In this document: positions 7,338-27,110 of the stretch, in pieces
How positions within the stretch are numbered: position 1 is the first letter of the stretch
Layout: every line of letters starts with the position of its first letter
Origin: Candidatus Omnitrophota bacterium
GTDB lineage: Bacteria; Omnitrophota; Gorgyraeia; Zapsychrales; JANLHA01
Reading direction: 5' to 3'
Length of the DNA stretch: 32,000 bases
Assembly (NCBI GenBank): GCA_963662715.1
Contig: OY759724.1
Coordinates: forward strand, 990,001-1,022,000
The notes under the pieces: model-generated
Databases searched by the model: none
What the model saw: the letters and a program-made list of their open reading frames with translations, nothing else
What the model was told of the DNA's origin: nothing
Made by a program: the position numbers and the translations under genes

Positions 7338-7970
7338 ATGAACCCATTTGAAAACAATCTTTTAAAATATTTCAAGCCCGAACAGCTGCAAAAAATTCAG
7401 TCCAAAAAAATTGGTATCGGAGGCGCCGGAGGTCTGGGATCGAATGTGGCGGTCATTTTGGCGCGTTGCGGATTCAGAAATTTCGAGATACTGGATGATG
7501 ACACCGTTGATCATTCCAATCTGAACCGTCAATTCTATTTTCTGGATGAGGTGGGAAAAAGCAAGGTGACCACTTTGCGCAACCGCCTTTTAAAAATCAA
7601 CCCTGATTGCGCCGTTCATATTTTTCCTGTTCATTGGTCGGAGGAAACCGGAGACCAATTCTTTCACGCGTGTGATTTCATTGTTGAAGCCTTTGATGAA
7701 GCCGAAACGAAACATAAATTCGTGTCGTTTTACCAGCCCCGGGCCCCTCATATCATCAGCGGGACAGGAATGGCAGGACTTATGCAGAAAAAGCCTTTAA
7801 CTCATAAAAAACTTGCTAATATTCACCTGGTCGGGGATTTCACAACAGACACCGCTGAAGGCCACCCGCCGCTGGCCCCCCGGGTCACGGCCTGTGCTGC
7901 GATGATGGCCGAAATCATCCTGGACCTGACCTGCGGCGTCCCTCCCTTATACCCCCAGAAGCGCTCTTAA
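7338..7970 (+). CDS. thiF: ThiF-family adenylyltransferase (ThiS-activating E1-like enzyme), short form
   Basis: 210 aa. Rossmann/E1 motif IGIGGAGGLGSNVAVILARCGFRNFEILDDDTVDHSNLNRQ. No C-terminal Zn CxxC pair, as in the short ThiF forms. Confidence 0.8.
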   Translation: MNPFENNLLKYFKPEQLQKIQSKKIGIGGAGGLGSNVAVILARCGFRNFEILDDDTVDHSNLNRQFYFLDEVGKSKVTTLRNRLLKINPDCAVHIFPVHWSEETGDQFFHACDFIVEAFDEAETKHKFVSFYQPRAPHIISGTGMAGLMQKKPLTHKKLANIHLVGDFTTDTAEGHPPLAPRVTACAAMMAEIILDLTCGVPPLYPQKRS

Positions 7971-8879
7971 GGTCGTCCTGGCTGTTTCCATAATCCCTTT
8001 GGATTTCGTGCGGAGGTTGTCATATTCGTTGCTGAACACAATATATTGTTCTTCGAACTTTTTATTGCTGACGCTGTCTTTCTTTTTCGGTTCTTTGATC
8101 TCCCGCCATAATAACGAAAGCATGCGTTCAATTCTTTCTATCTGGTCAATACATCCTCTGTAATGCCTGAATGACTTATCGTCGGACAAACTTCCCAGAG
8201 CAGAGACGGATATATTGTATTTCCATTTTCCTTCATTAAAATCCCAGCATTTGACGAGAAAATTGAGTGTTTGTTCATAGGCAAAGTTGCGGTTTTTTAA
8301 TAAGAGCTCCCGAAGGACAGAGGCCTTGAAATTAAGAAATTCTGACCTCGGCCGATGCAGGGGCAACAGCTTTACGCTTTGTGAAATCTCAGGCAGCCAG
8401 TTGGCCAAAAGAGGATAGGTCCCGTACGTATCCACCAGACTTTTGGCGCTGAATTTGTCTCCCGTGCCAAAGTCCCCGATGGCAATATCAACACTGTTGG
8501 TCTCAATAAATTTTCCGAGATTGTCATAGAATTCGACATCCTCGTTAACATAATCAAGATCCCCGGGCAATTGAATAATGCGCTCGGTTTCCGGATAATG
8601 ATCCAGCACATACCCCCAGCCCGCAAGCCAGGTCTGGCAGGTGTCAACGGACCAGGTTTCAATCACCTCAAGGGTGTCGTAGCGCGCATCCTTCAAAAAG
8701 GAAGCCGCATCGCCCTTGAGGACGGTTGTCCTGGGCAGCATAACGATCGGCTTAGGATCAATCTGCTTGCACCTGTCCACCGTCCACCAAAAGTACCACT
8801 GGCACTGCTCGTTGTGCTCATACCCCAGGTAAGGAAATATAATAACTGGTTTGGAACGAATATATTTATCTTTGATCAT
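7947..8879 (-). CDS. Hypothetical protein, possibly a GT-A-fold glycosyltransferase
   Basis: 310 aa with no motif I can assign to a named family with confidence. It has a beta-strand-like VIIFPY at the N-terminus, a DxD-like IIQLPGDLDY, then IAIGDF, then YPLLANWLPEISQSVKLLPLHRPRSEFLNFKASVLRELL. From memory this resembles the PLL..PEL...QPL.GEYA..RELL segment of GT81/GT55-type glycosyl-3-phosphoglycerate synthases. Coding status is good; function is weak. Confidence 0.6.
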   Translation of the reverse strand: MIKDKYIRSKPVIIFPYLGYEHNEQCQWYFWWTVDRCKQIDPKPIVMLPRTTVLKGDAASFLKDARYDTLEVIETWSVDTCQTWLAGWGYVLDHYPETERIIQLPGDLDYVNEDVEFYDNLGKFIETNSVDIAIGDFGTGDKFSAKSLVDTYGTYPLLANWLPEISQSVKLLPLHRPRSEFLNFKASVLRELLLKNRNFAYEQTLNFLVKCWDFNEGKWKYNISVSALGSLSDDKSFRHYRGCIDQIERIERMLSLLWREIKEPKKKDSVSNKKFEEQYIVFSNEYDNLRTKSKGIMETARTTLRALLGV

Positions 8880-9107: not shown

Positions 9108-10865
9108 TTATACTTTACCTCTTCGTGCTTCCAATTTAATGCGAACATCATGGGCATCCTGCTCGGTAAACTTAATAGAAGCAATAACCACGATGGCAAT
9201 GACAGAGGCTACAATTGGAATGGAAACATCAAATATTCTCATCCACAGTAACGTATCCAAGGATTGGCCGATGCCTTTTCCTTGATCAAACCCTGTCCAA
9301 GCGAGCATGGCCCCACCGAGAAGCCCTGCAAGGGCCAGCCCCATCTTGACCATCCACCAATAGACCGCGGTGAACATTCCTTCACGGCGTTCGCCGGTTT
9401 CAAGTTCATCAATGTCACAGATATCCGCGAGCATCGAAAGAAAGATGGTGAAAATTGATCCCAGTCCGAAGACAATGAACGGTGCGCATAGTAAAAGCAA
9501 ATAGTGGGATTTCGCCAGGAACCAGCAAACCTTTACAAAGCTAATAAAACCAACCCCGCTGAGCATCTGCCACAACTCACTGTCTGCCGGATGAACTTGC
9601 AGGTACGCGGGCCATTTCATAGCAAAACCGATGATAGAGAGAGGGATGGCAATAAAAAAGGCATTCCGTTTTCCCAGCTTTTTGCTGAGCCATACAATTC
9701 TTGGGATGATAATCGTTGTACAGATGGCGCTAAAGGTCCCATAGACACCCAGCAATTTCCCGCCCGCGGAATATGCCAGGCCCGTATCCGGAGCATTCTT
9801 GAAAACATGAAAGAAAATAACCCAAAGAATAAAAGTGGAACTGAGCATAAAACCGTTAAAAATCAAGAATGTGCCCGTACAAATTTTAACAAACAGCTTA
9901 ATCTTGAATGTAAGGGCGATGTTATCAAATAATTTTTTCAATACCGGGTGGGCATAAAGTAACATGTAAACACCTGCGAACACTCCCCCGCCTAAGAGAA
10001 TAGCTGCAATTCTTACAGGTAAGGTAAACCAAGGATATTTTTCCGGACTAACATAAAAGGAGAAGAAAAAGGCAAGGACACCACAAATACCATAGAGCTT
10101 CGAAAGGAACTTCGCGCTATTGTGAGATTTTAAATTTTTAACATAATCCCCGGTTATTTTTTGCGGTTTGGGGAGGTTGGCGAAATGTTCCTTATTAAAA
10201 ATAGCCGGAAGGATACCGCCGGCTATGATGATAAGCCCGATAATGATAGAAACGATTCGTGCTCCCAGAACGGGGTCGGCCTCTCCCGTTTCAGGATTTG
10301 GAAACCAATTTTTGTTATACAGTATCGCCCAGCACCAGGGAGAAATGAGCCAAGGGATTTGGGCCATAACCCTGCTCCACCCTTGCAAGGCTGTCCGTTC
10401 ATGATAATCCGGGGTCAATTCATAACCCAAGGCGAGCCAAGGGATGGAAAAGCAGGTAAACGCACCGAAAAAGACAACTTGTAAAATCAGAAAATACCAG
10501 CCATTGAATGTTTTGCTGTTTTCCGGGTAAAGCTGGAACATGAGGAAGTAGCAGATCCCTGCGCAGATGGCGCCCCAAAAGATAAAAGGTTTGCGGCGCC
10601 CGTATTTTGTGCGTGCATTATCCGAGCTAAAACCGATAATAGGATCTAAAATGCCGTCAAAAACACGGGGGACAAATCCGATTAAACCGACTATCGCGGG
10701 ATTTAAACCTAAGCCGAGAATTAAAATCGCGACCATTTGGCCGATCCATGCCGCCTGACTGTCATTGGCCATTGATCCCATGCTGTATGCAAATTTTTGC
10801 AATAAAGGAATACGATCTTCCTTTGCTGTTACATGGTGGGTTGTCTTGTTTGCTGCAGATGCCAT
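9108..10865 (-). CDS. GPH-family (MelB/glycoside-pentoside-hexuronide) sugar:cation symporter, unusually long
   Basis: 585 aa and highly hydrophobic. The N-terminal GPH signature is FVPRVFDGILDPIIGFSSDNARTKYGRRKPFIFWG (D..DP..G..SD...T..GRR.PF). RBS GGGAGG lies 7 nt upstream of the ATG. Confidence 0.85.
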   Translation of the reverse strand: MASAANKTTHHVTAKEDRIPLLQKFAYSMGSMANDSQAAWIGQMVAILILGLGLNPAIVGLIGFVPRVFDGILDPIIGFSSDNARTKYGRRKPFIFWGAICAGICYFLMFQLYPENSKTFNGWYFLILQVVFFGAFTCFSIPWLALGYELTPDYHERTALQGWSRVMAQIPWLISPWCWAILYNKNWFPNPETGEADPVLGARIVSIIIGLIIIAGGILPAIFNKEHFANLPKPQKITGDYVKNLKSHNSAKFLSKLYGICGVLAFFFSFYVSPEKYPWFTLPVRIAAILLGGGVFAGVYMLLYAHPVLKKLFDNIALTFKIKLFVKICTGTFLIFNGFMLSSTFILWVIFFHVFKNAPDTGLAYSAGGKLLGVYGTFSAICTTIIIPRIVWLSKKLGKRNAFFIAIPLSIIGFAMKWPAYLQVHPADSELWQMLSGVGFISFVKVCWFLAKSHYLLLLCAPFIVFGLGSIFTIFLSMLADICDIDELETGERREGMFTAVYWWMVKMGLALAGLLGGAMLAWTGFDQGKGIGQSLDTLLWMRIFDVSIPIVASVIAIVVIASIKFTEQDAHDVRIKLEARRGKV

Positions 10866-14139: not shown

Positions 14140-15144
14140 TTATTTTAATACTTTGCAGGAATCGCGGACAACAAGCTGGGGCGTTAAGACCATTTGAACA
14201 GCGGATTTCTTTTTACCGGTCATAATATTATGTAAATATTTTACTGCATATTCGGCCATTTGAAATAAAGACTGCCGGATCGTTGTTAAGGCCACCGGAC
14301 CATAAAGACTGGACGGATTATCGTCAAACCCGATCACGGATATATCCTGGGGCACTTTCAGGCCCCGCTCTTGAATAACATTAATCGCCTCCAGGGCCAT
14401 ATCATCGCTGGCGGCAAAGATAGCGGTCGGGGGTTGCGGCAGGGACAGAAAGGTTTCCGTCGCATTCCGCGCACTTCGGCGGGAATAATCCCCTTCGATG
14501 ACATATTCTTCTTTCAAATCAACATTCTCTTTTTCCAGGCCCTGCTTAAAACCTTCAAATCGCTGGGCTCCGGCCTGGGTTTGAAGATTACCGGTCACTG
14601 TTGCAATGTGATGATGTCCAAGGCTGATTAAATAATCGGCTGCTATGCGTCCGCCGGCCACGTTATCGATGCCGATATAATTGACATCCAGGTCATCAAC
14701 AATATTGTTGATCACAAGACTTGGGATATTGGCCGCCAAAGCTTCTTCAATCTGCTTTCGGTTTTCAATAATATCAGCAAAAATAACACCGCCGACACTG
14801 TTGGTGTTGATAGGATTAAAACCATTGGTTATGTGGAAGACCAGGTCCAGACGCAATGTTTCACAGGCATGCCCCACCCCGCGAATGATCTCTATCGCGT
14901 AAAAAGAATAAAAAATGCCAGGGTATCCTGGCATAACTAATCCGATAGCATTGTTCGTCCCGCTGGCCAAACGCTGGGCGCTGACGTCCGGTTTGTATTT
15001 CAAAGCCGCAATCGCTTCTTCGACCTTCGCACGATTCTGAGGGCTTACAGTAGGGACATTATTAATAACACGCGAGACCGTTGTGATGGACACTCTGGCT
15101 CGTCGGGCTACATCATCTATACTAACTTTACGTTTCCGGCTCAC
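14140..15144 (-). CDS. LacI-family transcriptional regulator
   Basis: 334 aa. The N-terminal HTH VSIDDVARRARVSITTVSRVINNVPTVSPQNRAKVEEAIAALKYKPDVSAQRL is followed by a periplasmic-binding-protein-like sugar-sensor domain (IGFDD motif). GTG start 11 nt after the stop of the upstream coiled-coil gene. Confidence 0.9.
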   Translation of the reverse strand: MSRKRKVSIDDVARRARVSITTVSRVINNVPTVSPQNRAKVEEAIAALKYKPDVSAQRLASGTNNAIGLVMPGYPGIFYSFYAIEIIRGVGHACETLRLDLVFHITNGFNPINTNSVGGVIFADIIENRKQIEEALAANIPSLVINNIVDDLDVNYIGIDNVAGGRIAADYLISLGHHHIATVTGNLQTQAGAQRFEGFKQGLEKENVDLKEEYVIEGDYSRRSARNATETFLSLPQPPTAIFAASDDMALEAINVIQERGLKVPQDISVIGFDDNPSSLYGPVALTTIRQSLFQMAEYAVKYLHNIMTGKKKSAVQMVLTPQLVVRDSCKVLK

Positions 15145-15155
15145 GTTATCCTATT

Positions 15156-16481
15156 CTACCGCACCGTATCTCCGACTTGAATAGTCGTAACCTTGTTTTT
15201 TATATCCGCCGCGGCGATATCGCTTCTGACCTGAATAACCTCTAAGGCAGCCACATACTCAGCGCCTCTATAAACGCTCATGTTATCTCCGAGCTTCAGG
15301 CCGTCACTCTCCCCCAAATCGACAATAACAAAATTGTTTTCGTCATTCACAGAAACAACATTCCCGTCAAACCCGGGAGATACTGCGACAGCGACCTCAT
15401 CTTCCAGGACAGAATGATTAGAGGAGGACACAACGATGGGTGGCAGTTCCACTTCACCGGACGCCTGGCTGTCCGTCGATTTAAAATTCTTTTCCAGGCT
15501 GTCTTTAATGTCCCAGATTTCATCTATCCGGTTTTGAATAATGTTTTCTGTCTCAAGCAGTTTACGTTCGATGGTCTTTTTTTCGTCCTGCAGACGGACA
15601 ATGCTCTTTTCCAGAGCAATCTTCGTGGAAGTCAATCCCTTGATCTGATTCCTTAAATTCGTATTTTCGTCATTCATTTTGCCAAGCCTGCCGTTGAGGA
15701 ACTTCTTGTCATTTTCGGAACGGGCCAGCTCCAGGGAAAGATTGTCCGCCAGGTCATTCCCGTGCTTGATCTTCCGCTCGATAGACTCTTTTTCATTGTT
15801 CAATTCCGACAAGCCCAGCTCCAGGTCGGAATTCCTCTTCTTCATTTCTTCCAGCTCAAGCATGCTCTTTTCAAGCCTGCCCTGCAAATCTTCCGTTTCC
15901 AATTCAAGCGCGGTTTTTTCTTTAATGACCTGCGCCCAATAATTTTCATTATCAGATGATATTTCCAGAGACGGAGGACTCACCGGTTTTTCCTGCACGG
16001 CCTGTTTCTCCGGGACTTTTTTATCCGCCAAAGGTCTCTGCAACTGGTCTTGCGGAACAGGGGCTCCGGTATCCCGGTCGACATACTTGTAAACCACCTG
16101 CGGCTCCGCCTTTTCCTTAAGCTGAGCCAACAACTTTTCCCGCTCGCCCTCCAGTTTCTTAACCTTTTCCTGCAACCCCTCCCGCTCCTGCGACAACTCC
16201 TTCAGCTTCAAATCAAGATCTTCCATATTGCCGTCAAAAGAACTTAATTTCTCCTGCAATTCTGTCTTGATTTTCTCCGCCACCTTCAGCTTTTCCTGAA
16301 GGTCCTTGTTCTCCAGAATATATTTTTTCTCCCGGCCCTGGAATTCATCAATTTGCTTTTCCAAAGAAATCTTCGCCTTATCCACTTCCTGCTTCTGTAA
16401 AGCGACATAAGTTAACAATCCGACGGAGACAAAAAGCAATAAGAGCAAAAAAACTAATATGGACTTTGCAGCTCTCGACAT
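15156..16481 (-). CDS. Membrane-anchored long coiled-coil protein with a small C-terminal beta-rich domain (hypothetical)
   Basis: 441 aa. N-terminal TM ILVFLLLLLFVSVGLLTYVAL. About 300 aa of E/K/L-rich heptad-like sequence follow (LQEKLKVAEKIKTELQEKL..., LEGEREKLLAQLKEK...). The C-terminus is NVVSVNDENNFVIVDLGESDGLKLGDNMSVYRGAEYVAALEVIQVRSDIAAADI..IQVGDTV. Strong RBS AAGGAG lies 5 nt before the ATG. Confidence 0.75.
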   Translation of the reverse strand: MSRAAKSILVFLLLLLFVSVGLLTYVALQKQEVDKAKISLEKQIDEFQGREKKYILENKDLQEKLKVAEKIKTELQEKLSSFDGNMEDLDLKLKELSQEREGLQEKVKKLEGEREKLLAQLKEKAEPQVVYKYVDRDTGAPVPQDQLQRPLADKKVPEKQAVQEKPVSPPSLEISSDNENYWAQVIKEKTALELETEDLQGRLEKSMLELEEMKKRNSDLELGLSELNNEKESIERKIKHGNDLADNLSLELARSENDKKFLNGRLGKMNDENTNLRNQIKGLTSTKIALEKSIVRLQDEKKTIERKLLETENIIQNRIDEIWDIKDSLEKNFKSTDSQASGEVELPPIVVSSSNHSVLEDEVAVAVSPGFDGNVVSVNDENNFVIVDLGESDGLKLGDNMSVYRGAEYVAALEVIQVRSDIAAADIKNKVTTIQVGDTVR

Positions 16482-16693: not shown

Positions 16694-17332
16694 CTACTCA
16701 TACTGAATATTATCTAAATAAAATGTACAAGACTCCGGATTCACATCAACATTTGTTGACCACGAAAAGCCGCCGCTGACATAAGATAAATCCCGGCCTC
16801 TTAAATCAATGGTATACTTCCTCCACTCATTCGTCAGGATCACAGGTCCGATGATGGCCATATCCGAATCCGGGTAATCTCCGGTAATGCCTCCCATCTT
16901 AAACTCTTCAATACGTTCTCCGCCTTTCTCACCCTTGGCCCAAAAACTTAATTCCCGCGCGCCTTCCAAATTAAAACCGCCTTTCTGGTTCCCCCAGTTA
17001 TTCGCCGGATTAAGCCAATAAATACCCGCCCATTTTTGATCTTCCTGGGAACATTCAATTTCATATTCCACGCGCATACAGGTTTTTCCATCATAACAGT
17101 CTTGCTGCCAGGCATCATTAAAATTAAGACATTTTCCGTTGGGCATAAAGCCAGAGGGAACAAAATGGTTATCTCTTGAGCCTTTATCTTTATACACGAT
17201 AAAGGGCTTGAACGTACTTTCCGTTTGCTCATAATTATTACTCTGCCCCGTCGAACTTACGCTGGTCCGGTTACACCCCCACACGACGAACACACACAGG
17301 GCCAATAGAAAAAAATTTTTTTTAATGGCCAT
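16694..17332 (-). CDS. Lipoprotein with a carbohydrate-binding-module-like beta-sandwich (hypothetical)
   Basis: 212 aa. Lipobox LALCVFVVWG-C. The Trp/Gly/Asn-rich AGIYWLNPANNWGNQKGGFNLEGARELSFWAKGEKGGERIEEFKMGG...WRKYTIDLRGRDLSYVSGGFSW...FYLDNIQYE looks like CBM / galactose-binding-like domains. Confidence 0.7.
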   Translation of the reverse strand: MAIKKNFFLLALCVFVVWGCNRTSVSSTGQSNNYEQTESTFKPFIVYKDKGSRDNHFVPSGFMPNGKCLNFNDAWQQDCYDGKTCMRVEYEIECSQEDQKWAGIYWLNPANNWGNQKGGFNLEGARELSFWAKGEKGGERIEEFKMGGITGDYPDSDMAIIGPVILTNEWRKYTIDLRGRDLSYVSGGFSWSTNVDVNPESCTFYLDNIQYE

Positions 17333-17478: not shown

Positions 17479-18336
17479 TTAATCTTCCAAAGCCTCCAAC
17501 TTTTGCTGTGCTGCTTCTGCCGGTTTCCAGAACCAACCCTTGGGATCCCAGCACTGAGAAAAATAATAATCGTCGACTAATTTCTTAAACGCTTCTTTAG
17601 CTTCGCTATTTTTACCGGCGTTCATATAGGCTTCGCCTCTGATAAAAAGACAGGTGCCGATATCATTCAATGCCCAGTAAGAAAAAATCTTGTCCTTGGA
17701 TTCCCAGGGATATTCCGTGAGCGACTCCTGCATTTCCTTGGCCTTTTCTTCATACAGCTCCAGGCATTTATTTGTATAAGCCAACACGGAATCAAGATCT
17801 TTTTCGGCTAAGGCTTCCCAAGCTTTAACCGCGAGAGTGCTGGATGTGTAATCCCCGAAATCCAAATCTGACCCGGACTCAATCATGGCGATTTTTTCTT
17901 TTGCCGCTTCGGCCGGCTTCCAGAACCATCCCTTGGTATCCCAGCATTGCCCGTATGAATACTCATCAATAAGCTTCTGATAGGCTTTAACAGCTTCGTC
18001 ATTCATTTTAGCCTTGCGATAAGCTTCTCCTTGAATGAATAAACCGGTAGCGATATCATTGAGCGCCCAATAGGAAAAAATTTCATCATTGGTTCCTGTC
18101 GGATACTCTGTTAAACTCGCCTGCATTTTTTGCCCTTGCTCGGCATAAAGTTCGATACACTTATTTGTGTATGCCAATACAGCTTCCAAATCGTTCTCTG
18201 CTAAAGATCCCCATGCTTTGGTGATCAATGTCACGGAACGATAATCCCCGAAGTTATAAGCGAATGCCTTTCCTGGAATGGCCAACGATAAACCCAATAC
18301 CAAAGCCATCATGACAAAGAAAATCTTTTTTAACAT
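17479..18336 (-). CDS. Secreted protein made of two copies of an unassigned TPR-like helical module
   Basis: From ORF 17479..18357. I prefer the start at ATG 18336 (MLKKIFFVMMALVLGLSLAIPGKAFA-YNF), which has GGAGG 9 nt upstream and a clean signal peptide. The mature protein is an internal duplication (see the repeat feature). Confidence 0.8.
   Translation of the reverse strand: MLKKIFFVMMALVLGLSLAIPGKAFAYNFGDYRSVTLITKAWGSLAENDLEAVLAYTNKCIELYAEQGQKMQASLTEYPTGTNDEIFSYWALNDIATGLFIQGEAYRKAKMNDEAVKAYQKLIDEYSYGQCWDTKGWFWKPAEAAKEKIAMIESGSDLDFGDYTSSTLAVKAWEALAEKDLDSVLAYTNKCLELYEEKAKEMQESLTEYPWESKDKIFSYWALNDIGTCLFIRGEAYMNAGKNSEAKEAFKKLVDDYYFSQCWDPKGWFWKPAEAAQQKLEALED
17482..18258 (-). repeat. Intragenic tandem duplication, 393-bp (131-aa) period, two copies
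   Basis: ORF-numbered aa 34-164 versus 165-292. 79 of 121 aligned residues are identical by hand count. Conserved blocks are FGDY, VLAYTNKC, SLTEYP, IFSYWALNDI, GEAY, QCWD.KGWFWKPAEAA. The DNA copies are visibly related but diverged. Confidence 0.85.
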
Positions 18337-18569
18337 CTCTACCATCCTCCAATTCATTTTACTTAAAAATTCTTTAATTTTGATTTATGTGAATTCCTTA
18401 AAAAGTAATTTTAAGGATATCTAACCAAGCGGTCAGATAAAACAATTTTGATTATACTACCTGCCAACACCCCCTCTCTTATTAAGATATAGATGAAAAT
18501 AACTCAGTAATTATAACATTTTTTACTATTATATAGCAAATTTTATTAACAACCCCCACGGGGACGATC

Positions 18570-21071
18570 TCAGGGGAGCTCATTCCAGGCTTCCTTATAA
18601 AATTCATAAGTCTTTCGCAGACGGCGCATAAAAGGGCTGTCTGTCCCGTTGCCCTGGGATGTAATGCCAAACCATTCTTCATAATAATATCCGCCCGGGA
18701 AAGGCCCGATGGCATCCGATTTACGGTCGTGATAAAAAGGCTCATAATTCTTCCACCATTCATCCGTCCATTCGAAAACAACGGCTCCCAGGGCATTGCC
18801 CTCACCCTCCGCACGGCCAGCCATATTGGCTTCAACATCATACCAGTTGCCCCGGTGATAATTCGCCTGGGCTTCCTCCCCTTCTTCCTGCGTTAAATGT
18901 TTCGCATAAGCCGGGCAACCGTATTCGGTAATAAAAGCAGGCTTGTCCGTAGCTTCCTTGATCTGTTGCCAATACGCGCCAAAACCATAATCCCCCCGAT
19001 AAGCATTCGCGGCAAACATATCAATATCAGGGGCATGCTTCGCAAAAATATCCAGATATAGAGTGTCCCCGTTACATAAAGCTACCGGGTGCTCCGGATC
19101 TAATGATTTAATCATCTTGGCCACTTCGTTCGCAAACTTGTAATATGCCTCTGGCTTTGTATCAGCATTTGAAGCGACCCCGTAGTTATTTTCATTCCCC
19201 AACAGCCAAAACAATAAATAAGGTTCGTCTTTATGCTCCAGCACCATCTGACGAACCGACTCCATCATGTTCTTTTGGTGTTCAGGATTTTCATAATCCG
19301 TCCCTTCAAACCAGGATGCTCCTGAACCTAAAGTGTATTTTCCCAAGAAATCTCCCAGAATCACCCGGATGCCGAATTCATCATATAACTTACGAAAAAC
19401 TTCCTTATTGGGCTTAAACGGTTGATGATACTCACGTATTGTATTGGCGCCCATTTCCGCCATCAGCTGAAAATCACCGACAACCGGTTCATCGTCATCC
19501 CGTTGGTTATTTTCGTTAGCATCCACCCAGACATCATAAGGACCGTCCGGAAGACCGTTTTTGTTCGTGTCTTCATACATCCAGGAAACGAGGGTCCCTT
19601 TATCCGGACTTTGCCCGATCTTTGTCGGGGCATAAGTAACACCTTTGATGATATAGGGTTTCCCTTCGACTAATAACTGCCAATGACCGTTCTCGTACTG
19701 CACCAGCGAGACTTTCCCCTCTCCCAACCTTCTTTTAATTTTCCGCAGAGGGACGGTCTTTTTATCAAGATTCATCTTATCCTTAACTTTATCAAGAAAC
19801 CCTTTCTCCTCTATCACGCCGGGATAGGTGATAACGGCATCATTGCTCACATCATTATCAAATCCGTTGATAACAGTCATCTTCATCCATTTCACTTTTA
19901 AATTCAACTCGGGATGAGAACGGACAAGATGAATGATCTTCGCGACAGCGGCCTGGGCCGGATACCAAGGCGTCTGCCAATATGTCCAGCCGATTGTTTT
20001 AGGAAAATGCACAACAAGCGCGTGGTAAGCTTTAATCGCCTCATAATACATCTGCGCTTTCTCTAAAATCATGGCCATATAAAACAGTTTGATCCCTCCC
20101 GGCTCAGGTGCGGTAGCCCATTTAAAAAAGGCTGCCTCCAAATCATCACTGTACACAAAATCCCAATGGCTACCGTCCAGGCGTCCTTCTTTTTTCGCTT
20201 GTTTATATTTGGGATTCTTCAGGATATCGCTGTTATTCGGATAAATGCCTTCTCCCACGGCTTCTTTGAGGCCTTTGAAATCATTGATTTTATAACGATA
20301 ATCTTTTGTGCCCACCTCAACAAACTCGCCATACTTCTGATAATCGATGACTTTTTCTGTCCCCGGCCTGGCTAAAGAAGGCAGTGTCCGCAGACGAGTC
20401 GGAGGCACCTCCTCCTCCTCTTCAACTTTGCCGGTCATCACATCAATACTGTCCTGACTTTTCTCCGCGACGGACCACAACGATCCTCGGGAGGGATCCC
20501 AGGCTTGAGCCCAGCCATACTCGTCGATAATGGATTGAAATACCCGGATCGACTGCTCGGTCTTGCCGTAATTCATGTAAGCTTCGGCCTGAATAAAAAG
20601 GACGGTGGCAAGATCATTTAATTCCTGACATTCCTTTTCCTTGCCCTTTGACGGGAATTCCGTCAACCCGGCCTGCTGTTCCTTGGCCTTCTCTTTATAG
20701 ACAGATAAAACCGCTTCAACCAGTTTATCCAGTTGCTCTAAATTCCCCTGGTGGGACAGCTCCCAGCATTTCCGGACCACGTCTTCCGGCGTTGCATCCT
20801 GATTAAGAGCAAAATCCTCAAAGGGGATATTTAGTTTCACGGATTGATCAGCGGCTGATTCATCAATCGACTCAGCCGGGACATCAGCTTCGGCTGCGTC
20901 CTGAGTTTCAACATCCGGCATATTTCCTTGATCTTCTTTCGTGATAGCTTCCGCTGTTGCCTTCTGACTTTCCGTTTCTGAACTTTTTTCTTCCTGGGCA
21001 CCGGCTAAAGAAGACATAAAAATCAAGCCGGCCATAAGCGTTGTATAAACTATTTTTTTCACTATAAACAC
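18570..21071 (-). CDS. Secreted multidomain glycoside hydrolase: signal peptide, acidic linker, helical module(s), beta-sandwich, clan GH-A (GH2/GH5-like) TIM barrel
   Basis: 833 aa. Signal peptide ...LMAGLIFMSSLAGA-QEE; GTG start at 21071, or GTG at 21062 giving MKKIVY. The pre-barrel strand is GKPYIIKGVTY. Acid/base motif FWLLGNENNY (Glu627, 19191-19193). Nucleophile motif PAFITEYGCP (Glu716, 18924-18926). The late FEWTDEWWK is typical of clan GH-A. Confidence 0.8.
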   Translation of the reverse strand: MFIVKKIVYTTLMAGLIFMSSLAGAQEEKSSETESQKATAEAITKEDQGNMPDVETQDAAEADVPAESIDESAADQSVKLNIPFEDFALNQDATPEDVVRKCWELSHQGNLEQLDKLVEAVLSVYKEKAKEQQAGLTEFPSKGKEKECQELNDLATVLFIQAEAYMNYGKTEQSIRVFQSIIDEYGWAQAWDPSRGSLWSVAEKSQDSIDVMTGKVEEEEEVPPTRLRTLPSLARPGTEKVIDYQKYGEFVEVGTKDYRYKINDFKGLKEAVGEGIYPNNSDILKNPKYKQAKKEGRLDGSHWDFVYSDDLEAAFFKWATAPEPGGIKLFYMAMILEKAQMYYEAIKAYHALVVHFPKTIGWTYWQTPWYPAQAAVAKIIHLVRSHPELNLKVKWMKMTVINGFDNDVSNDAVITYPGVIEEKGFLDKVKDKMNLDKKTVPLRKIKRRLGEGKVSLVQYENGHWQLLVEGKPYIIKGVTYAPTKIGQSPDKGTLVSWMYEDTNKNGLPDGPYDVWVDANENNQRDDDEPVVGDFQLMAEMGANTIREYHQPFKPNKEVFRKLYDEFGIRVILGDFLGKYTLGSGASWFEGTDYENPEHQKNMMESVRQMVLEHKDEPYLLFWLLGNENNYGVASNADTKPEAYYKFANEVAKMIKSLDPEHPVALCNGDTLYLDIFAKHAPDIDMFAANAYRGDYGFGAYWQQIKEATDKPAFITEYGCPAYAKHLTQEEGEEAQANYHRGNWYDVEANMAGRAEGEGNALGAVVFEWTDEWWKNYEPFYHDRKSDAIGPFPGGYYYEEWFGITSQGNGTDSPFMRRLRKTYEFYKEAWNELP

Positions 21072-21086
21072 CCCTTCCGATTCTTG

Positions 21087-21959
21087 TTATCCGAAAACTG
21101 CGCCAGATAATAATCCTTTTATGATATGTTTCTGCATAAGAAGATACACAATAATGATCGGGATAGCTGCGATACTTAATCCGGCCATGAGAAGCGGATA
21201 ATCCACACTATGAGCACCCTGAAAAACCATTAATCCCCGCTGAAGCGGCATGATGGTAGGCTTATTAGGAATGTCATTCAACAATAACATCGCTAAAATA
21301 TACTCATTCCAAACATTTAAAGCGTTGAAGATAACGATAACCGCGATAGCCGGCCTTGCCAGAGGCAGGGCCACATGGCGCCATATCCCCAATTTTGTAC
21401 AGCCGTCGATCCGCGCGGCATCTTCCAGATCAGGCGGCATTTTATCAAAAAATGTTTTCAATAGCAAAATACTTAAAGACAGCCCGACATTAATCATACA
21501 AAGGATATAACCTAATTGCCTGACATAGGTGTAAGGAGAGTTGATAAATCCAAGCTTTGTCATAAGAACGGTTAACGGGACGAAACTTCCCGGCAGGGGG
21601 ATCATCATGGCAGCCACGAACATATAAAAGAAAAAATTCTTTCCTGGGAAATGAAGACGGGAAAAAGCATATGCCGCCAAAGAAGCGATGAGCACAATAC
21701 CCGCCACAACGCAAAAAGTGTAAATCACGCTGTTTAAAGAATACATGCCGAATTGGCCTTCGGTCCAGGCTTTGATAAAGTTGTCAAAATATATCTCCGA
21801 TGGGATCAAAGACTTGTCTGTAAAGACCGTTGCGTTGGTCATCAGGGCGGAACGCAGCATCCAAAACAGCGGGAAGAGACAGGTTATGGCTATGGCAAGA
21901 AGAAAAATGTGAACGGAAACGGCTTTTGTCGCCCGAATCACCCGGTATTTATTAACCAT
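21087..21959 (-). CDS. Carbohydrate ABC transporter permease (MalG/AraQ-like)
   Basis: 290 aa with six predicted TM segments. EAA loop DLEDAARIDGCTKLGIWRHVALPLARPA. RBS GAGGA upstream. Confidence 0.9.
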   Translation of the reverse strand: MVNKYRVIRATKAVSVHIFLLAIAITCLFPLFWMLRSALMTNATVFTDKSLIPSEIYFDNFIKAWTEGQFGMYSLNSVIYTFCVVAGIVLIASLAAYAFSRLHFPGKNFFFYMFVAAMMIPLPGSFVPLTVLMTKLGFINSPYTYVRQLGYILCMINVGLSLSILLLKTFFDKMPPDLEDAARIDGCTKLGIWRHVALPLARPAIAVIVIFNALNVWNEYILAMLLLNDIPNKPTIMPLQRGLMVFQGAHSVDYPLLMAGLSIAAIPIIIVYLLMQKHIIKGLLSGAVFG

Positions 21960-22005
21960 AATTTATCCTCATTTAAACATCCCCCCTCTGCCCGACAATA
22001 GGGAA

Positions 22006-22935
22006 TCAGGCCTGTTTCATGTGAGCGGAAAGTTTTTTCAAACAAAAAGACACGGCAATCAAGATCATGCCGAAATTAACACCCATGGCACAGGCATACC
22101 CGTAACGATTCTGCCTTGTCATGGCTTCTAAAATTTTTGTAACAGGAACAGATGTATAGTCCACTAATCCAGAAGGACCGACTAAAGATAAAATCAAAAC
22201 AAAAGCCTGCATCGCCCCGAGAATTGTTAAAATCATGACAACAACAATAACCGGAAGCATCATCGGGACTGTGACATTCTTAAACACACTGAATGAGCCT
22301 GCCCCGTCAACTCGTGCCGCTTCATATAATTGCCGGTCAATGGTCTGAAGGCCGGCTAAAAACATAACGAAGCCCCATCCGAATCCTTTCCAGGAGTGAA
22401 CGACAGCCACACAGGTTAAAACCGTCTTAGGATCGGATAACCAATTATTAACGAGATGAGAAAAACCAATTTTATGCAGAAAATAATTCAGCAAGCCGAT
22501 ATGCTGCCCGTCTTGTAAGCCGGGATAAAGGATCCAGCTCCAAATGAGGCCAACAACAACCTCGGAGAGAACCGGCGGGATGAAAAAGATCACCCGGTAA
22601 AACCCTTTCAGAAAAATCTCCCGGTCGCACGCCAAAGCCAAGGCAAAAGCCAAAGCATTCTGAAAAGTCAAAGCAATAAGCGTGATATAAGCGGCGTTCC
22701 ACATGGAGACCCACCAGCTCTTATCACTCATCAGTTCTTTAAAATTCTCAAAACCGACATATATACGTGTCGGGCTAATGCCGTTCCATTCCTGCAGGGA
22801 AAGATTAAAAATTTCCAGAAAAGGAGCGATGTAAAAGGTTAAGAAAATAAAGACCGCAGGTAAAACAAACGCAAAACTTCCCAGCTGGTCACGAATACGG
22901 GGAAGCGACATGCTCCTTTTTTGGGGTAAAGCCAT
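22006..22935 (-). CDS. Carbohydrate ABC transporter permease (MalF/AraP-like)
   Basis: 309 aa. EAA loop LYEAARVDGAGSFSVFKNVTVPMMLP. Follows the binding-protein gene after 23 nt. Confidence 0.9.
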   Translation of the reverse strand: MALPQKRSMSLPRIRDQLGSFAFVLPAVFIFLTFYIAPFLEIFNLSLQEWNGISPTRIYVGFENFKELMSDKSWWVSMWNAAYITLIALTFQNALAFALALACDREIFLKGFYRVIFFIPPVLSEVVVGLIWSWILYPGLQDGQHIGLLNYFLHKIGFSHLVNNWLSDPKTVLTCVAVVHSWKGFGWGFVMFLAGLQTIDRQLYEAARVDGAGSFSVFKNVTVPMMLPVIVVVMILTILGAMQAFVLILSLVGPSGLVDYTSVPVTKILEAMTRQNRYGYACAMGVNFGMILIAVSFCLKKLSAHMKQA

Positions 22936-22958
22936 ATTTTAAAGGTTTAACCTTAAAT

Positions 22959-24266
22959 TTATTCGCGCTTCTTCTTTTTCGCCATCTGGCGTTCTTTGAC
23001 TTTCTGCACTTCTTCTGCCACCTGTTGAGGCGTTTTTTCACCGATAATAATCGACTGAATGCCTTTATCAAATGCCTCAACGACCAAAGGATGTTCATCC
23101 AGCGGCCAGATCGTTGGATGTGTTGTCGCGTCCATGGCTCTGGCAAATTCCGAAAGCACATCCGGGATATCGGTCAAAGCATAGCGATTCGCCGGTAAAT
23201 TTAAAGTCTCCTTTGATAAATAAGCTTGCTGTTCTTTCGCCGAAAGCCACTTTAAAAACGCAATCGCCTTATCCTTTTTATCGCTTGAATTATTAACGAC
23301 AAACGATGATCCTGCCCCGCCCCATATGCGCATCGGGATATTCTTGCTGTATTTCGGTGGCAGCATAACGCCATAATCAAGATGAGGATTCATCTTATGA
23401 TAAACATTGACGCACCAGGAGCCGTTAAAAGCAAATGCGTTACGGTTCAAGGCGAAATCCTGCTCAGCATATTTATTGGCTTTTGTCACGACCCCTTCGG
23501 CTAAGGCCCCTTTATCGCGTAAAGTTGCAAAAACCTGAAGAACCTCGATCCATTCGGGATCTGTATACGGGACTTTGCCGCGGTACGTGGCCATAACTTT
23601 ATCTTCACCTAAAATATTGAAAGCATAATTGGAGGCAAAACAATTCACCAGCCATAATTCCCCCCACCCGGAAACAAGCCCGGATACCCCAACGCGTTTT
23701 AAAGCTTCAATGGCTTCCAGAAACTCATCAAAAGTTTGAGGCACTTTACTGATTCCGGCCTTTTCCAGCAAGGCTTTATTATAAAGCATCTGAACATTCG
23801 TGACATCGATGGGAACACCGTAGATTCCGGGTTCAATGCCATAGCTATTTCCTTCATCAAAACGGTTTGCGGCAAGGGCCTTCGGGAAAAGGCTTTTCTC
23901 CCAGGCTGAATTATCTTTGACAAATTCTTCAGACAGATCCGCAACATATCCGCTTTCAATAAAGGTAGCAAAAACGGATTTCTTATCCAGGATTCCAAAG
24001 ATATCAGGAAGGATTTTGGCTTGGGCTGCGGCAATGATTTTTTGGGAGTAAACATCAGAAGGGGCGTAAAGTTCAAAGATGACTTCAACTCCGGTCTCTT
24101 CTTGATATTTTTTCGCTAACTCCTTTAAAACTTCATGCCGGTCAGTTATCCAGTGCCAAACCGTAATGATATTCTTATTCGGCGGAACGGCTGGGCCACC
24201 ACAGCTTTGACAACTCCAGATAACGGCTATGGCCAAACATATGCCTGCCAGAAATTTCCCTTTCAT
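22959..24266 (-). CDS. Sugar ABC transporter substrate-binding lipoprotein (solute-binding family 1)
   Basis: From ORF 22959..24272 (TTG). I prefer ATG 24266 (MKGKFLAGICLAIAVIWS-C lipobox), which has AAGGA 6-7 nt upstream. The Trp-rich family-1 SBP pattern is present (ITVWHW..., FNGSWCVN, RIWGGAGSSF). Confidence 0.9.
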   Translation of the reverse strand: MKGKFLAGICLAIAVIWSCQSCGGPAVPPNKNIITVWHWITDRHEVLKELAKKYQEETGVEVIFELYAPSDVYSQKIIAAAQAKILPDIFGILDKKSVFATFIESGYVADLSEEFVKDNSAWEKSLFPKALAANRFDEGNSYGIEPGIYGVPIDVTNVQMLYNKALLEKAGISKVPQTFDEFLEAIEALKRVGVSGLVSGWGELWLVNCFASNYAFNILGEDKVMATYRGKVPYTDPEWIEVLQVFATLRDKGALAEGVVTKANKYAEQDFALNRNAFAFNGSWCVNVYHKMNPHLDYGVMLPPKYSKNIPMRIWGGAGSSFVVNNSSDKKDKAIAFLKWLSAKEQQAYLSKETLNLPANRYALTDIPDVLSEFARAMDATTHPTIWPLDEHPLVVEAFDKGIQSIIIGEKTPQQVAEEVQKVKERQMAKKKKRE

Positions 24267-24399
24267 GGTCAATCCTTTAATATAGTAGCCCCAAGGTGTG
24301 AAGGTCCGCGAATAAAATATCTCTGGGGTTGAGCTTTAACTTATTGGGATTATTAAGTTAAATACGGATTGTATTCAAATGTAAAAATAATGATCGAGT

Positions 24400-24428
24400 A
24401 TTCTATCACGCACATTTTATTTTGTCAA
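24400..24428 (-). promoter_or_regulatory. Near-consensus sigma70 promoter for the SBP-permease-hydrolase operon (TTGACA-17-TAGAAT)
   Basis: The minus strand reads tttttTTGACAaaataaaatgtgcgtgaTAGAATactcg. The -35 is at 24428-24423 and the -10 at 24405-24400, giving a leader of ~125 nt. Confidence 0.6.
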
Positions 24429-24476: not shown

Positions 24477-26894
24477 TTATTCTATCACAACTTTAACCTT
24501 ATGAACCTGGGCATCTTTAAAAGGAACAATGATATCCCCTTCTATGACCTGCCCATCCACCGTGATCGTTTTCCGGCCTTTTTCCTTGCCTTGAGGGTTA
24601 AAAATCTCTATTTCATAAACATCCCCCCGGAAGGGCCGGCGGATAAAACATTTTTTCCACTGAGGAGGAAGACACGGATCAATCCTCAATCCCTCATAAT
24701 CTCTCCGCACCCCCAGAATCCATTCCGTAGCCAACATAAAATTCCATCCCGACGTTCCGGTAATCCAGGTAAAAGCCCCCTCCCCGTAACGGTAGGGGTT
24801 GCCAGGCCCGACTAAATATTCGGCAAAAACATACGGTTCCGTCTTATACAGCTCCATATTCTTTTGTTTGTTGGGCATGATCTTACACACAGCCTCATAA
24901 GCTTTGGCCCCGTAGCCGGCCATGGCATACCCGACCGCCATAAAAGTGGCGGCGTGGCAGAAAACAGCGGCATTCTCTTTTGTCCCTTCAGAAAACATGC
25001 TGATGCGTCCCAGCCTCTGAACCCAGTCAGAATAGGCAGGAGCAAAAAGAGCCAGCCCATGGGGACCGTTAAGATATTTATCCGTGGCCTGCAGGATTTT
25101 TTTCAAGCGATCACCCCGGGCCACTTCTGAAAGCACTGCCCAGGCCTGCGCATTTAAAAAGATTTTGCCTTCCTTGTCTTTCTTGCTTCCGTAGACCTGC
25201 CCCTGGTCATCAAATCCGCGGGCGTACCATTCTCCGTCCCAGCCCGCGGTATTTATCCGCTCATCCATCGTCTTGGCCATCTGCAAATATTCCGCTTTTT
25301 TCTGTTCTTCATTGACCAGCTGACAAAGTTCGGCTAAAACTTTAAGCGACCGGACCAAAGCTTCTGCCAACCAGACGCTTTCCCCTTTATGCTGAATACC
25401 GGCAGCGTCAATAGCATCATTCCAGTCAGCATGGCCGATTCTGGGGAACCCTTTTTCTCCGACATCGTTAAAGCAATAACGCAGATTCTTTTCTAAGTGC
25501 TCGAAAAGGGTGCCTTCCCCATCGGTCTGAGCCCCTCCTTTGTGCTGCGGATCCACCTCCCAGCCGTTGATCCACTTGTCTTTTAAATAAGGGACGTACT
25601 CAAAGAGAATATCCTTGTCTCCGGTTTCCTTAATATAAGAACTCACTGTCGCCGTCAGCCAGATGGGGTGGTCTTTATTGGGAAGAAATTTATGCGGGCC
25701 TACGGTGTCCGACCACCCGGGAGCCGATGTCCCGTCCCTGCGGATCAAAGAGGCCAGTTTTAAAATTTTTTGACGCGTTAGGGCCGCATTGATAGAAACA
25801 GCCGCCTCAGAATCCTGGGCGGAATCCCGGTAGCCCCGGCCGCCGGATCCCTCGTGGTAAAAACTCGGGGACCGTGACCAGAGATTACATATATACAGCT
25901 GGTATTTCACCCAAATGTTGAAAAGGGTGTCGAAATCTTTATCCGGGGTTTTACAGACAATATTATCCACGACACGCTTCTTCCAGATATCCTGTGTCCG
26001 GATCAGCTCCTGCCTGGCTAATTTGGGTTGACGATACTTAGCAACGGTCTTCCCGATACCTGAGATATCATGGCTCTGTCCTAAAACGACCGTGAATTCT
26101 TTAGACTGCCCCGGGCCTAATGTCAGCGTATGCTTATAGGCTCCTATGCTGTCTTCCCCGGAACAGAGATAAAAATTCTTGAAATGACCGTCAATCACCG
26201 CCTCCGGCTTTTCCTCGGTGTTATAACGGCCCAGGAACGCATCTTTCTGAGTGCAACAGCCCTTGACGGGCAAGGAAGAAGCAAAGTATATCAGGGAATC
26301 AAACGGCTGGATATTCATCCCCTGCCATTGAGCGGTCTTCTTGGCATACACAACTTTCTGTTTTTTATCAAACCATACCCGGTTGTATAAGTTCATAATG
26401 TTCCGGTATCTCAAATCCTCATGATAATCTCCTATGAGAAATTCCACATAAGGGTAAACTTCCAGTTTTTTTTCCTTTTTCGACGGATTCGTGATGTTCA
26501 CCAGCCAAACTTCACAGGATTCATCCTCCGGCACAAAAAAAGTTACTTCCGAGCGGACACCATTATTCAAGGCGGAAATCGTCGTATACCCCAGGCCATG
26601 CCGGCATTCATACTGCTGAGGCGTCACCCGAAGAGGCTGGTATGTCAAAGACCAGGCTTTCTTACCTTCTCGCATAAAGATGTATTTCCCCGGCCGGTCA
26701 AAATGCCAGTTTTCCGGGGCCCAGCGCGTAATACGGTTGCTTCGGCAGTCCTTATAAAAACTGTATCCCCCGGCACACTGTGAGAGGATACAACAGTAAT
26801 TTTCATTTGTAAGATAATTGATCCAGGGGCGGGGCGTGAGCGGAGTTGTAATAACATATTCTAAGCCTGATTTTGAAAAATATCCGTACTTCAT
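24477..26894 (-). CDS. GH94-family glycoside phosphorylase (cellobiose/chitobiose/beta-glucan-oligosaccharide phosphorylase type)
   Basis: From ORF 24477..27050. MKYGYFSKSGLEYVITTPLTPRPWINYLTNE is the canonical N-terminus of cellobiose-phosphorylase-like enzymes. GSGGRGYRDSAQD and RIGHADWNDAID (Asp542 in ORF numbering, 25425-25427) match the conserved catalytic-centre segments from memory. The start is set at ATG 26894 (AAGAGGA 8 nt upstream), giving 805 aa. Confidence 0.9.
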   Translation of the reverse strand: MKYGYFSKSGLEYVITTPLTPRPWINYLTNENYCCILSQCAGGYSFYKDCRSNRITRWAPENWHFDRPGKYIFMREGKKAWSLTYQPLRVTPQQYECRHGLGYTTISALNNGVRSEVTFFVPEDESCEVWLVNITNPSKKEKKLEVYPYVEFLIGDYHEDLRYRNIMNLYNRVWFDKKQKVVYAKKTAQWQGMNIQPFDSLIYFASSLPVKGCCTQKDAFLGRYNTEEKPEAVIDGHFKNFYLCSGEDSIGAYKHTLTLGPGQSKEFTVVLGQSHDISGIGKTVAKYRQPKLARQELIRTQDIWKKRVVDNIVCKTPDKDFDTLFNIWVKYQLYICNLWSRSPSFYHEGSGGRGYRDSAQDSEAAVSINAALTRQKILKLASLIRRDGTSAPGWSDTVGPHKFLPNKDHPIWLTATVSSYIKETGDKDILFEYVPYLKDKWINGWEVDPQHKGGAQTDGEGTLFEHLEKNLRYCFNDVGEKGFPRIGHADWNDAIDAAGIQHKGESVWLAEALVRSLKVLAELCQLVNEEQKKAEYLQMAKTMDERINTAGWDGEWYARGFDDQGQVYGSKKDKEGKIFLNAQAWAVLSEVARGDRLKKILQATDKYLNGPHGLALFAPAYSDWVQRLGRISMFSEGTKENAAVFCHAATFMAVGYAMAGYGAKAYEAVCKIMPNKQKNMELYKTEPYVFAEYLVGPGNPYRYGEGAFTWITGTSGWNFMLATEWILGVRRDYEGLRIDPCLPPQWKKCFIRRPFRGDVYEIEIFNPQGKEKGRKTITVDGQVIEGDIIVPFKDAQVHKVKVVIE

Positions 26895-26955
26895 ATGGTC
26901 CATCCTCTTTCTGATAATGTTATTATTTTGAAAAATATAGTAAAGAATACGTGGG

Positions 26956-26984
26956 ATATTATCATAGAGAAAAATTGCGGTCAA
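26956..26984 (-). promoter_or_regulatory. sigma70-like promoter for the GH94 gene (TTGACC-17-TAATAT)
   Basis: The minus strand reads tcTTGACCgcaatttttctctatgaTAATATccc. The -35 is at 26984-26979 and the -10 at 26961-26956. It lies inside the ORF-track N-terminal extension, which supports the shorter start. Confidence 0.55.
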
Positions 26985-27110
26985 GATTTTTCCCAGATTA
27001 ATCGCGATAAACAGGCGGGATACTGGCCTTGATCGTGTTTCAGATACCACGCGGGGATTCTGCTCTCTAAACAGGCAAAGTCGGTGGCCTACCCCCCGAC
27101 TCCGCTCATT

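Follow-up and report, generated by a model that had tools for sequence, protein, structure and literature searches.

A tetratricopeptide repeat-derived module with a Trp-rich hairpin, shared by a predicted GH158-like hydrolase and its neighbour in a conserved sugar-uptake gene cluster of Omnitrophota

The SusD glycan binders of Bacteroidota are exported, alpha-helical proteins that contain tetratricopeptide repeats (TPR), are encoded beside glycosidases and sugar-uptake genes and consist of one domain of ~500 residues that operates with a SusC/TonB-dependent transporter. In Fibrobacter succinogenes, a diderm bacterium with neither a cellulosome nor a Sus system, the secreted TPR proteins FSU_2397 and FSU_2398 were found in a complex with cellulase, fibroslime and OmpA proteins; they were proposed to hold glycoside hydrolases (GH) in an envelope complex feeding uptake by a solute-binding protein (SBP) and ABC importer and cleavage by a cellobiose/cellodextrin phosphorylase (PMC6851124). 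Here we describe a TPR-derived module from Omnitrophota, a widespread phylum of which no member has yet been isolated (PMC10066038). The module is carried by two adjacent open reading frames, ORF A and ORF B, in 32,000 nucleotides of a Candidatus Omnitrophota bacterium (GenBank assembly GCA_963662715.1, contig OY759724.1, positions 990,001 to 1,022,000 of the forward strand). This whole stretch is referred to as the window, its first nucleotide being position 1; all window coordinates given below are on the minus strand. ORF B additionally contains a predicted GH158-like catalytic domain, and both genes lie in a conserved sugar-import cluster.

ORF A (17479–18357) encodes a predicted secreted protein with two modules and has 292 codons at its longest; an identical database protein (P0001; 285 aa) starts seven codons later, at 18336. 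ORF B (18570–21071) encodes 833 aa. Sec-type signal peptides, as read from the sequence, start both proteins (GKAFA/YNF in ORF A and SLAGA/QEE in ORF B, the slash marking the cleavage point). Module copy 1 occupies residues 34–161 of ORF A (17875–18258; delimited by the HMM envelope and AlphaFold2 secondary structure) and contains the hairpin CWDTKGWFW, while copy 2 occupies residues 165–292 (17482–17865; HMM envelope). When residues 36–156 are aligned without gaps to residues 167–287, 79 of the 121 positions are identical. The duplication is old, since the two copies share 65% identity at the DNA level and only 42% at third codon positions, and each is nearest to the module at the same position in relatives.

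The third copy lies in ORF B (residues 87–214; 20430–20813; HMM i-E 1.5e-46), and its alignment with the ORF A copies (ORF B residues ~91–209) gave Smith-Waterman scores of 187–226, compared with 30 ± 6 for shuffled sequence. A degenerate half-copy at residues 326–382 of ORF B (19926–20096) comprises the second TPR hairpin, a hairpin reading WTYWQTPWY and the capping helix. Its pairwise scores are weak (72 with copy 1, against 27 ± 4.5 for shuffled sequence, and 39 with copy 2), as is its match to the rich module profile (i-E 0.023). Profile-profile comparison using hhalign aligned residues 326–382 with module columns 70–126 at a probability of 93.8% (E 1.8e-7) and argues convincingly for a true, if partial, module; the ORF B model shows the succession helix-helix-hairpin-helix at this position, as in the full module. 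A preliminary description, made from the nucleotide sequence, had claimed the internal duplication of ORF A, a diverged third copy and a degenerate half-copy in ORF B; all three are borne out, and the count of 79 identical residues was reproduced exactly.

The ORF A model, obtained with AlphaFold2 on an alignment of 60 sequences (pLDDT 93.2), shows the module as a unit of ~125 aa consisting of two TPR-like helical hairpins, a Trp-rich beta-hairpin and a capping helix. The predicted elements begin with a helix, a long helix and a short loop helix; two more helices, the two-stranded beta-hairpin and the capping helix follow. The signature CWD..GWFW forms the beta-hairpin, and the helix pair preceding it corresponds to the Pfam TPR_6/TPR_2 repeat. 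This agrees with the earlier reading of TPR-type hairpins closed by a Trp-rich cap and identifies the cap as a beta-hairpin. Despite the high pLDDT, the pTM of the model is only 0.68 and confidence falls in the linker between the two modules, which therefore look like independent beads and not like a continuous superhelix.

Conservation was measured on 599 unique modules drawn from every context in which the module occurs. The best-conserved columns are W16, A42, N66, D67, T70, A88, Q103, W105, D106, G109 and W112, with conservation of 99% for N66, 95% for D67, 91% for both Q103 and W105, 94% for D106, 93% for G109 and 97% for W112. Several of the conserved columns are outside the TPR consensus: they belong to the hairpin or to the L-N-D extension with which the fourth helix begins. 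Columns 34, 71 and 104 are rich in cysteine (examples in ORF A are C67, C138, C198, C236 and C269) and partly co-occur, C34 being present in 278 of the 292 modules with C71, counts that are confounded by kinship. These columns hint at a disulfide and hence at an exported location.

Pfam detects one TPR repeat per module in ORF A (TPR_6, 42.8 bits, cut-off 26.3; TPR_2, 36 bits, cut-off 27), and the public name of these proteins is ‘tetratricopeptide repeat protein’. NCBIfam returned no family for ORF A. A search of PDB sequences with ORF A yielded only designed consensus TPR proteins at E values of at least 3.3; with the module profile, a single TPR repeat (columns ~70–100) was matched to consensus TPR proteins and to CpoB/YbgF, and no PDB chain spanned more than ~30–40 of the 125 residues. 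Submission of the ORF A model to Foldseek for comparison with the PDB returned only weak matches to generic TPR structures (E at least 5e-3; TM 0.2–0.3, calculated for the two-module query). CpoB/YbgF, BamD, LapB and YfgM are among these generic fold and PDB matches. The module had initially been called unrecognised. This stands for the full 125-aa unit, which was matched by neither Pfam, NCBIfam, the PDB nor Foldseek, so that no full-length match to a characterised family with a non-glycan role emerged from these sources; it does not stand for the one TPR repeat per module, which passes the Pfam gathering threshold. A literature search found no description of the module or of a GH158 enzyme with an appended TPR domain.

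The module shares TPR-consensus helix-turn-helix hairpins with canonical TPR proteins (TPR_6/TPR_2, clan CL0020; CpoB/YbgF). However, it has only two such hairpins, whereas canonical TPR domains have at least three contiguous repeats with a superhelical groove; its first B helix is long, its second A helix is extended by the invariant L-N-D, a Trp-rich beta-hairpin precedes the capping helix, and successive units are beads joined by linkers. The module is best filed as a domain family of its own, derived from TPR repeats and set apart by the Trp-rich hairpin inserted into it.

The family is large. A word-indexed search returned 1432 relatives of ORF A; among the 120 matches listed, proteins have two modules (~285 aa) or more (~390–510 aa; three where counted), and the named sources are Candidatus Omnitrophota, Aceula and Aureabacteria. 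When 1.84 billion representative proteins were searched with a profile built from 57 modules, 1544 clusters (50% identity) were retrieved at E ≤ 1e-3, and 942 at E ≤ 1e-10. Where a source is named, it is mainly Omnitrophota. Many members are single-module secreted proteins of ~145–200 aa, others hold 2–7 copies, and the upper end of the range of 1–8 is an eight-copy protein from a metagenome-assembled ‘Aureabacteria’ genome.

Fusions join the module to several other domains. P0281 combines two modules with Glyco_hydro_cc (5e-44), a family (PF11790) labelled GH128 endo-beta-1,3-glucanase (PMC11609419). P0287 (L090, 1930–5538) is a membrane protein of 1202 aa in which two modules lie between a clan GH-A-like domain (GNENNY) and a GT2 cellulose-synthase-like domain; the module here bridges a glucan hydrolase and a glucan synthase domain. 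Further partners are a GH72/GH2_C-like domain (P0301), CHB_HEX_C (P0262), a Ser/Thr kinase (P0367) and RHS repeats (P0305). The module and its cluster are also tied to the giant proteins of Omnitrophota: P0328, with 5953 aa, carries five modules, and a variant of the cluster abuts the gene for a protein of 25,408 aa (L096, 1–1931). According to a 2026 preprint, ‘GH2 catalytic-domain’ proteins recur beside giant Omnitrophota genes.

ORF B, which has 1310 relatives, was modelled with a pLDDT of 79.6 and a pTM of 0.78. The model places the module after a signal peptide and an acidic, disordered linker; a mixed domain, the half-copy and a beta-sandwich follow, and a TIM barrel completes the chain. 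The putative catalytic (beta/alpha)8 barrel (residues ~500–833; 18573–19574) matches Pfam GH2_C at 3e-16. Two glutamates, E627 in the NEN motif (GNENN) and E716 (ITEYG), are invariant in 46 homologues; they are the probable acid/base after strand 4 and the probable nucleophile after strand 7, respectively. The best PDB matches by profile are the GH158 enzymes BuGH158 (6pal; 2e-14) and GH158(Pro) (9oro; 1.5e-13), in both cases over ~130 residues only. GH158 is also the best Foldseek match (2e-12; target-normalised TM 0.52–0.56; ~20% identity), with GH2 glucuronidases and GH72 transglycosylases close behind by fold. Judged from sequence profiles and the model, the barrel belongs to clan GH-A and is closest to the GH158 endo-beta-1,3-glucanases, which is its predicted activity. 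Like these enzymes, it combines the clan GH-A barrel with both putative catalytic glutamates; unlike them, ORF B places an N-terminal module, the half-copy and a beta-sandwich ahead of the barrel.

Upstream of ORF B lies a sugar ABC importer (21087–24272) with an SBP gene (22959–24272) and two permease genes (22006–22935 and 21087–21959), preceded by a GH94 phosphorylase (24477–27050) that is nearest to cellobiose phosphorylase. Assignment of the latter as a laminaribiose phosphorylase was rejected, the match being 2e-42 compared with 8e-143 for cellobiose phosphorylase. Its longest reading frame, 857 aa from a GTG codon, overshoots the start of the cellobiose phosphorylase alignment by ~50 codons; as homologues have 805 aa, the true start is probably ~50 codons downstream. 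The probable substrate of the cluster is a beta-glucan or beta-gluco-oligosaccharide, of whatever linkage type.

Directly downstream of ORF A is the gene for a lipoprotein-like product of 212 aa (16694–17332), here called lipo212. It belongs to a family without annotation: searches of Pfam, NCBIfam and the PDB gave no match, even with a 34-sequence profile, and the ~3250 homologues, often proteins of 383–430 aa that hold two copies in tandem, are all ‘hypothetical’. No other gene accompanies module proteins as constantly as lipo212; examples are found in L007 (6087–6761, 8257–8847, 15991–16674 and 18160–18753) and L096 (10001–11152). It is followed by cc441 (15156–16481), a membrane-anchored protein of 441 aa, syntenic with the cluster in most of the sampled loci, that has an N-terminal transmembrane helix and a coiled coil of ~300 aa; its small C-terminal beta domain matches FlgT_C weakly, and the protein may serve as an envelope stalk or anchor for products of the cluster. 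A LacI-family regulator (14140–15144) stands at the cluster end.

Promoter-like sites were located by consensus match. The best (24400–24428; 11/12) is upstream of the SBP gene; another, with an extended −10 (18510–18539), falls within the 212 bp that separate ORF B from ORF A, shortly before ORF A begins, so ORF A may have its own promoter. A few kilobases downstream of the cluster, an ORF of 310 aa without Pfam match (7947–8879) stands beside a sugar-type MFS_2 transporter of 585 aa (9108–10865).

Conservation of this arrangement was assessed in loci from 80 species-representative genomes and 80 metagenome contigs, ranked by similarity to the query. The metagenome scan was seeded with single-module proteins in order to reach non-orthologous contexts, and the operon-type gene still dominated. 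The order (GH94)-SBP-permease-permease-ORF B-ORF A-lipo212-coiled coil-LacI was found in ~85–96% of the sampled loci with enough flank. On genome contigs, a GH158-like gene is directly upstream in 63 of 70 cases and a lipo212-like gene directly downstream in 70 of 73; on metagenome contigs the corresponding figures are 40/47 and 47/53. Co-occurrence of the module with GH and sugar ABC genes, which the preliminary description had named as a check, recurs in both samples. Its statement that the module is secreted, duplicated, fused to a glycosidase and embedded in a sugar-import operon is likewise upheld, the ABC importer, GH94 and LacI genes standing alongside and the association being kept across many genomes.

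Departures from this order are found in single loci. In L095 (927–3382) gene fission has left a separate 173-aa module gene between a permease gene and a module-free GH158-like gene, and in L173 (1221–4042) a single-module gene lies between a LacI gene and the module-carrying hydrolase (ORF B). L096 lacks the free ORF A and carries a doubled lipo212, and a second GH158-like gene without module follows. An ‘Aureabacteria’ locus encodes a three-copy and an eight-copy module protein; beside these lie four homologues of lipo212 and two LacI genes, and no GH is encoded in the surrounding 10 kb.

How the locus compares with the systems described at the outset can now be stated. An analogy to SusD, put forward in the preliminary description, is not sustained: ORF A gave no SusD Pfam family at E values up to 1, SusD was not among the top 50 Foldseek matches in the PDB, the ORF A signal peptide, read by eye, ends in an A-x-A site of the signal peptidase I type with no lipobox cysteine, and a scan of 18 of the 21 window ORFs with 150 aa or more found no TonB-dependent receptor. 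What the module proteins share with SusD is that they are alpha-helical, TPR-containing and apparently exported and are encoded beside a glycosidase and sugar uptake; they differ in being made of repeated beads of ~125 aa in place of one ~500-aa domain, and in that uptake proceeds by an ABC importer with no SusC/TonB-dependent transporter. Compared by description, FSU_2397 and FSU_2398 resemble the module proteins in that they contain TPRs and are secreted by a diderm bacterium lacking a cellulosome and a Sus system. Those two proteins come from another phylum and are proposed to act in protein-protein docking, and no Trp-rich hairpin has been reported for them.

In view of these findings, we tentatively propose, at a likelihood somewhat short of even, that the exported TPR-derived module tethers the enzyme and ORF A on a shared glycan target. 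The preliminary description had hypothesised a role in glycan capture or cell-surface tethering, an idea to which the genomic context lends support. The module would be a self-contained exported binding domain, and its presence on both ORF B and the free ORF A would hold the two on one multivalent target in the envelope, beside the lipo212 lipoprotein and the coiled-coil anchor and next to the importer. The target would be a glycan and could be the beta-glucan substrate itself or a glycopolymer of the envelope, with the module acting like a carbohydrate-binding or SLH-type tether. Beta-gluco-oligosaccharides released by ORF B would enter through the ABC importer and be split by the cytoplasmic GH94 phosphorylase. 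A shared tethering function is suggested by the autonomous, exported nature of the domain, its conserved non-TPR features, its repeated joining to and splitting from glycan enzymes and the near-constant presence of lipo212 in this cluster. A glycan as target is favoured because one module is found on enzymes, on a kinase and an RHS protein and in free-standing arrays, because paralogues retain the same aromatic and polar residues, and because sugar-responsive LacI regulators flank the module even where no hydrolase is nearby. Distribution of one module across enzymes, a kinase, one RHS protein, very long proteins and arrays is the pattern of wall- and glycan-binding modules such as SLH, LysM and PASTA.

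The module is distributed in the manner of carbohydrate-binding modules (CBMs), SLH, LysM and cell-wall-binding repeats. Like these, the module is small and apparently exported, occurs singly or in tandem on enzymes, a sensor kinase, toxin-like and non-catalytic proteins, and has conserved aromatic and acidic residues; it differs in being alpha-helical, not a beta-sandwich or other known CBM fold, and has no sequence or structure match to them. A further-reaching version would make the module the founder of a helical, TPR-derived carbohydrate-binding family which, together with lipo212 and the coiled-coil anchor, would form a hitherto undescribed type of glycan-capture apparatus replacing Sus-like and cellulosome systems in Omnitrophota and possibly latching onto surface glucans of host or prey; we regard this extension as rather unlikely, though worth stating.

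Several observations weigh against a glycan tether. TPR folds usually bind proteins, and the best natural match to the module among PDB sequences, over ~30 residues, is CpoB/YbgF, a periplasmic protein-protein scaffold. No CBM family appeared in the Pfam, NCBIfam or Foldseek matches, and the fold is helical. The conserved Trp, Asn and Asp residues, if not exposed, might do no more than staple the hairpin to the helices. The synteny counts mainly describe one orthologous group, because the loci were ranked by similarity to the query. Some cluster variants lack a free ORF A, and certain paralogues have phosphate-uptake (phosphate-regulon), redox or further housekeeping genes as neighbours and no lipo212 gene in the vicinity.

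An almost equally probable alternative is a protein-protein docking scaffold, in which the module would bind lipo212, the coiled-coil anchor or another module to form an envelope glucan-degrading complex, glycan recognition residing elsewhere. The fold is of the TPR class, with matches to CpoB/YbgF, BamD, LapB and YfgM, and lipo212 adjoins in 89–96% of the sampled loci and also in the ‘Aureabacteria’ locus without GH. The splitting of module and hydrolase seen in L095 is tolerated, and the pTM of the ORF B model suggests that its domains may pack together; FSU_2397/2398 in the F. succinogenes complex provide a precedent (PMC6851124). Docking accounts less well for the presence of one and the same module, in place of complementary ones, on the enzyme and the free protein. 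Moreover, the same polar and aromatic residues recur in paralogues from unrelated contexts, which fits a common ligand better than many protein partners, and many paralogues have no lipo212 gene nearby. On balance, we consider a glycan target slightly more likely than protein docking.

Alternatively, the module and half-copy could be intramolecular helpers that stabilise, chaperone or gate the GH158-like domain, with ORF A modulating the enzyme in trans. In every homologue of ORF B the half-copy is indeed embedded between module and beta-sandwich, the ORF B model has the pTM given above, and the main lineage invariably has ORF A behind ORF B. Yet the module occurs mostly alone or in arrays with no enzyme attached, it is fused to an unrelated kinase, RHS repeats and a GT2 synthase, and L096 has a second GH158-like gene that does without it, all of which makes such a role improbable. 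Equally improbable, and already disfavoured by synteny and fusions, is a generic, lineage-expanded periplasmic TPR family adjacent to the sugar cluster by chance, for although the TPR_6/TPR_2 matches, the public ‘tetratricopeptide repeat protein’ label and the paralogues in housekeeping contexts would suit it, the gene order is kept across ~160 sampled loci, fusions to glycan enzymes and fission/fusion with GH recur, and the defining non-TPR features are invariant.

Nutrient acquisition and host interaction are poorly understood in Omnitrophota. The present analysis defines two large, apparently exported families without annotation, the module (1544 clusters) and lipo212 (~3250 homologues), both firmly embedded in a carbohydrate gene cluster that is among the most conserved of the phylum. 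Should the module prove to be a docking device, it would suggest a cohesin/dockerin-like assembly principle in a diderm lineage. If, as we tentatively favour, its ligands are glycans, the known carbohydrate-binding modules would gain an architecture other than the beta-sandwich, and the module would provide better annotation for thousands of entries now named ‘TPR repeat protein’ or ‘hypothetical’.

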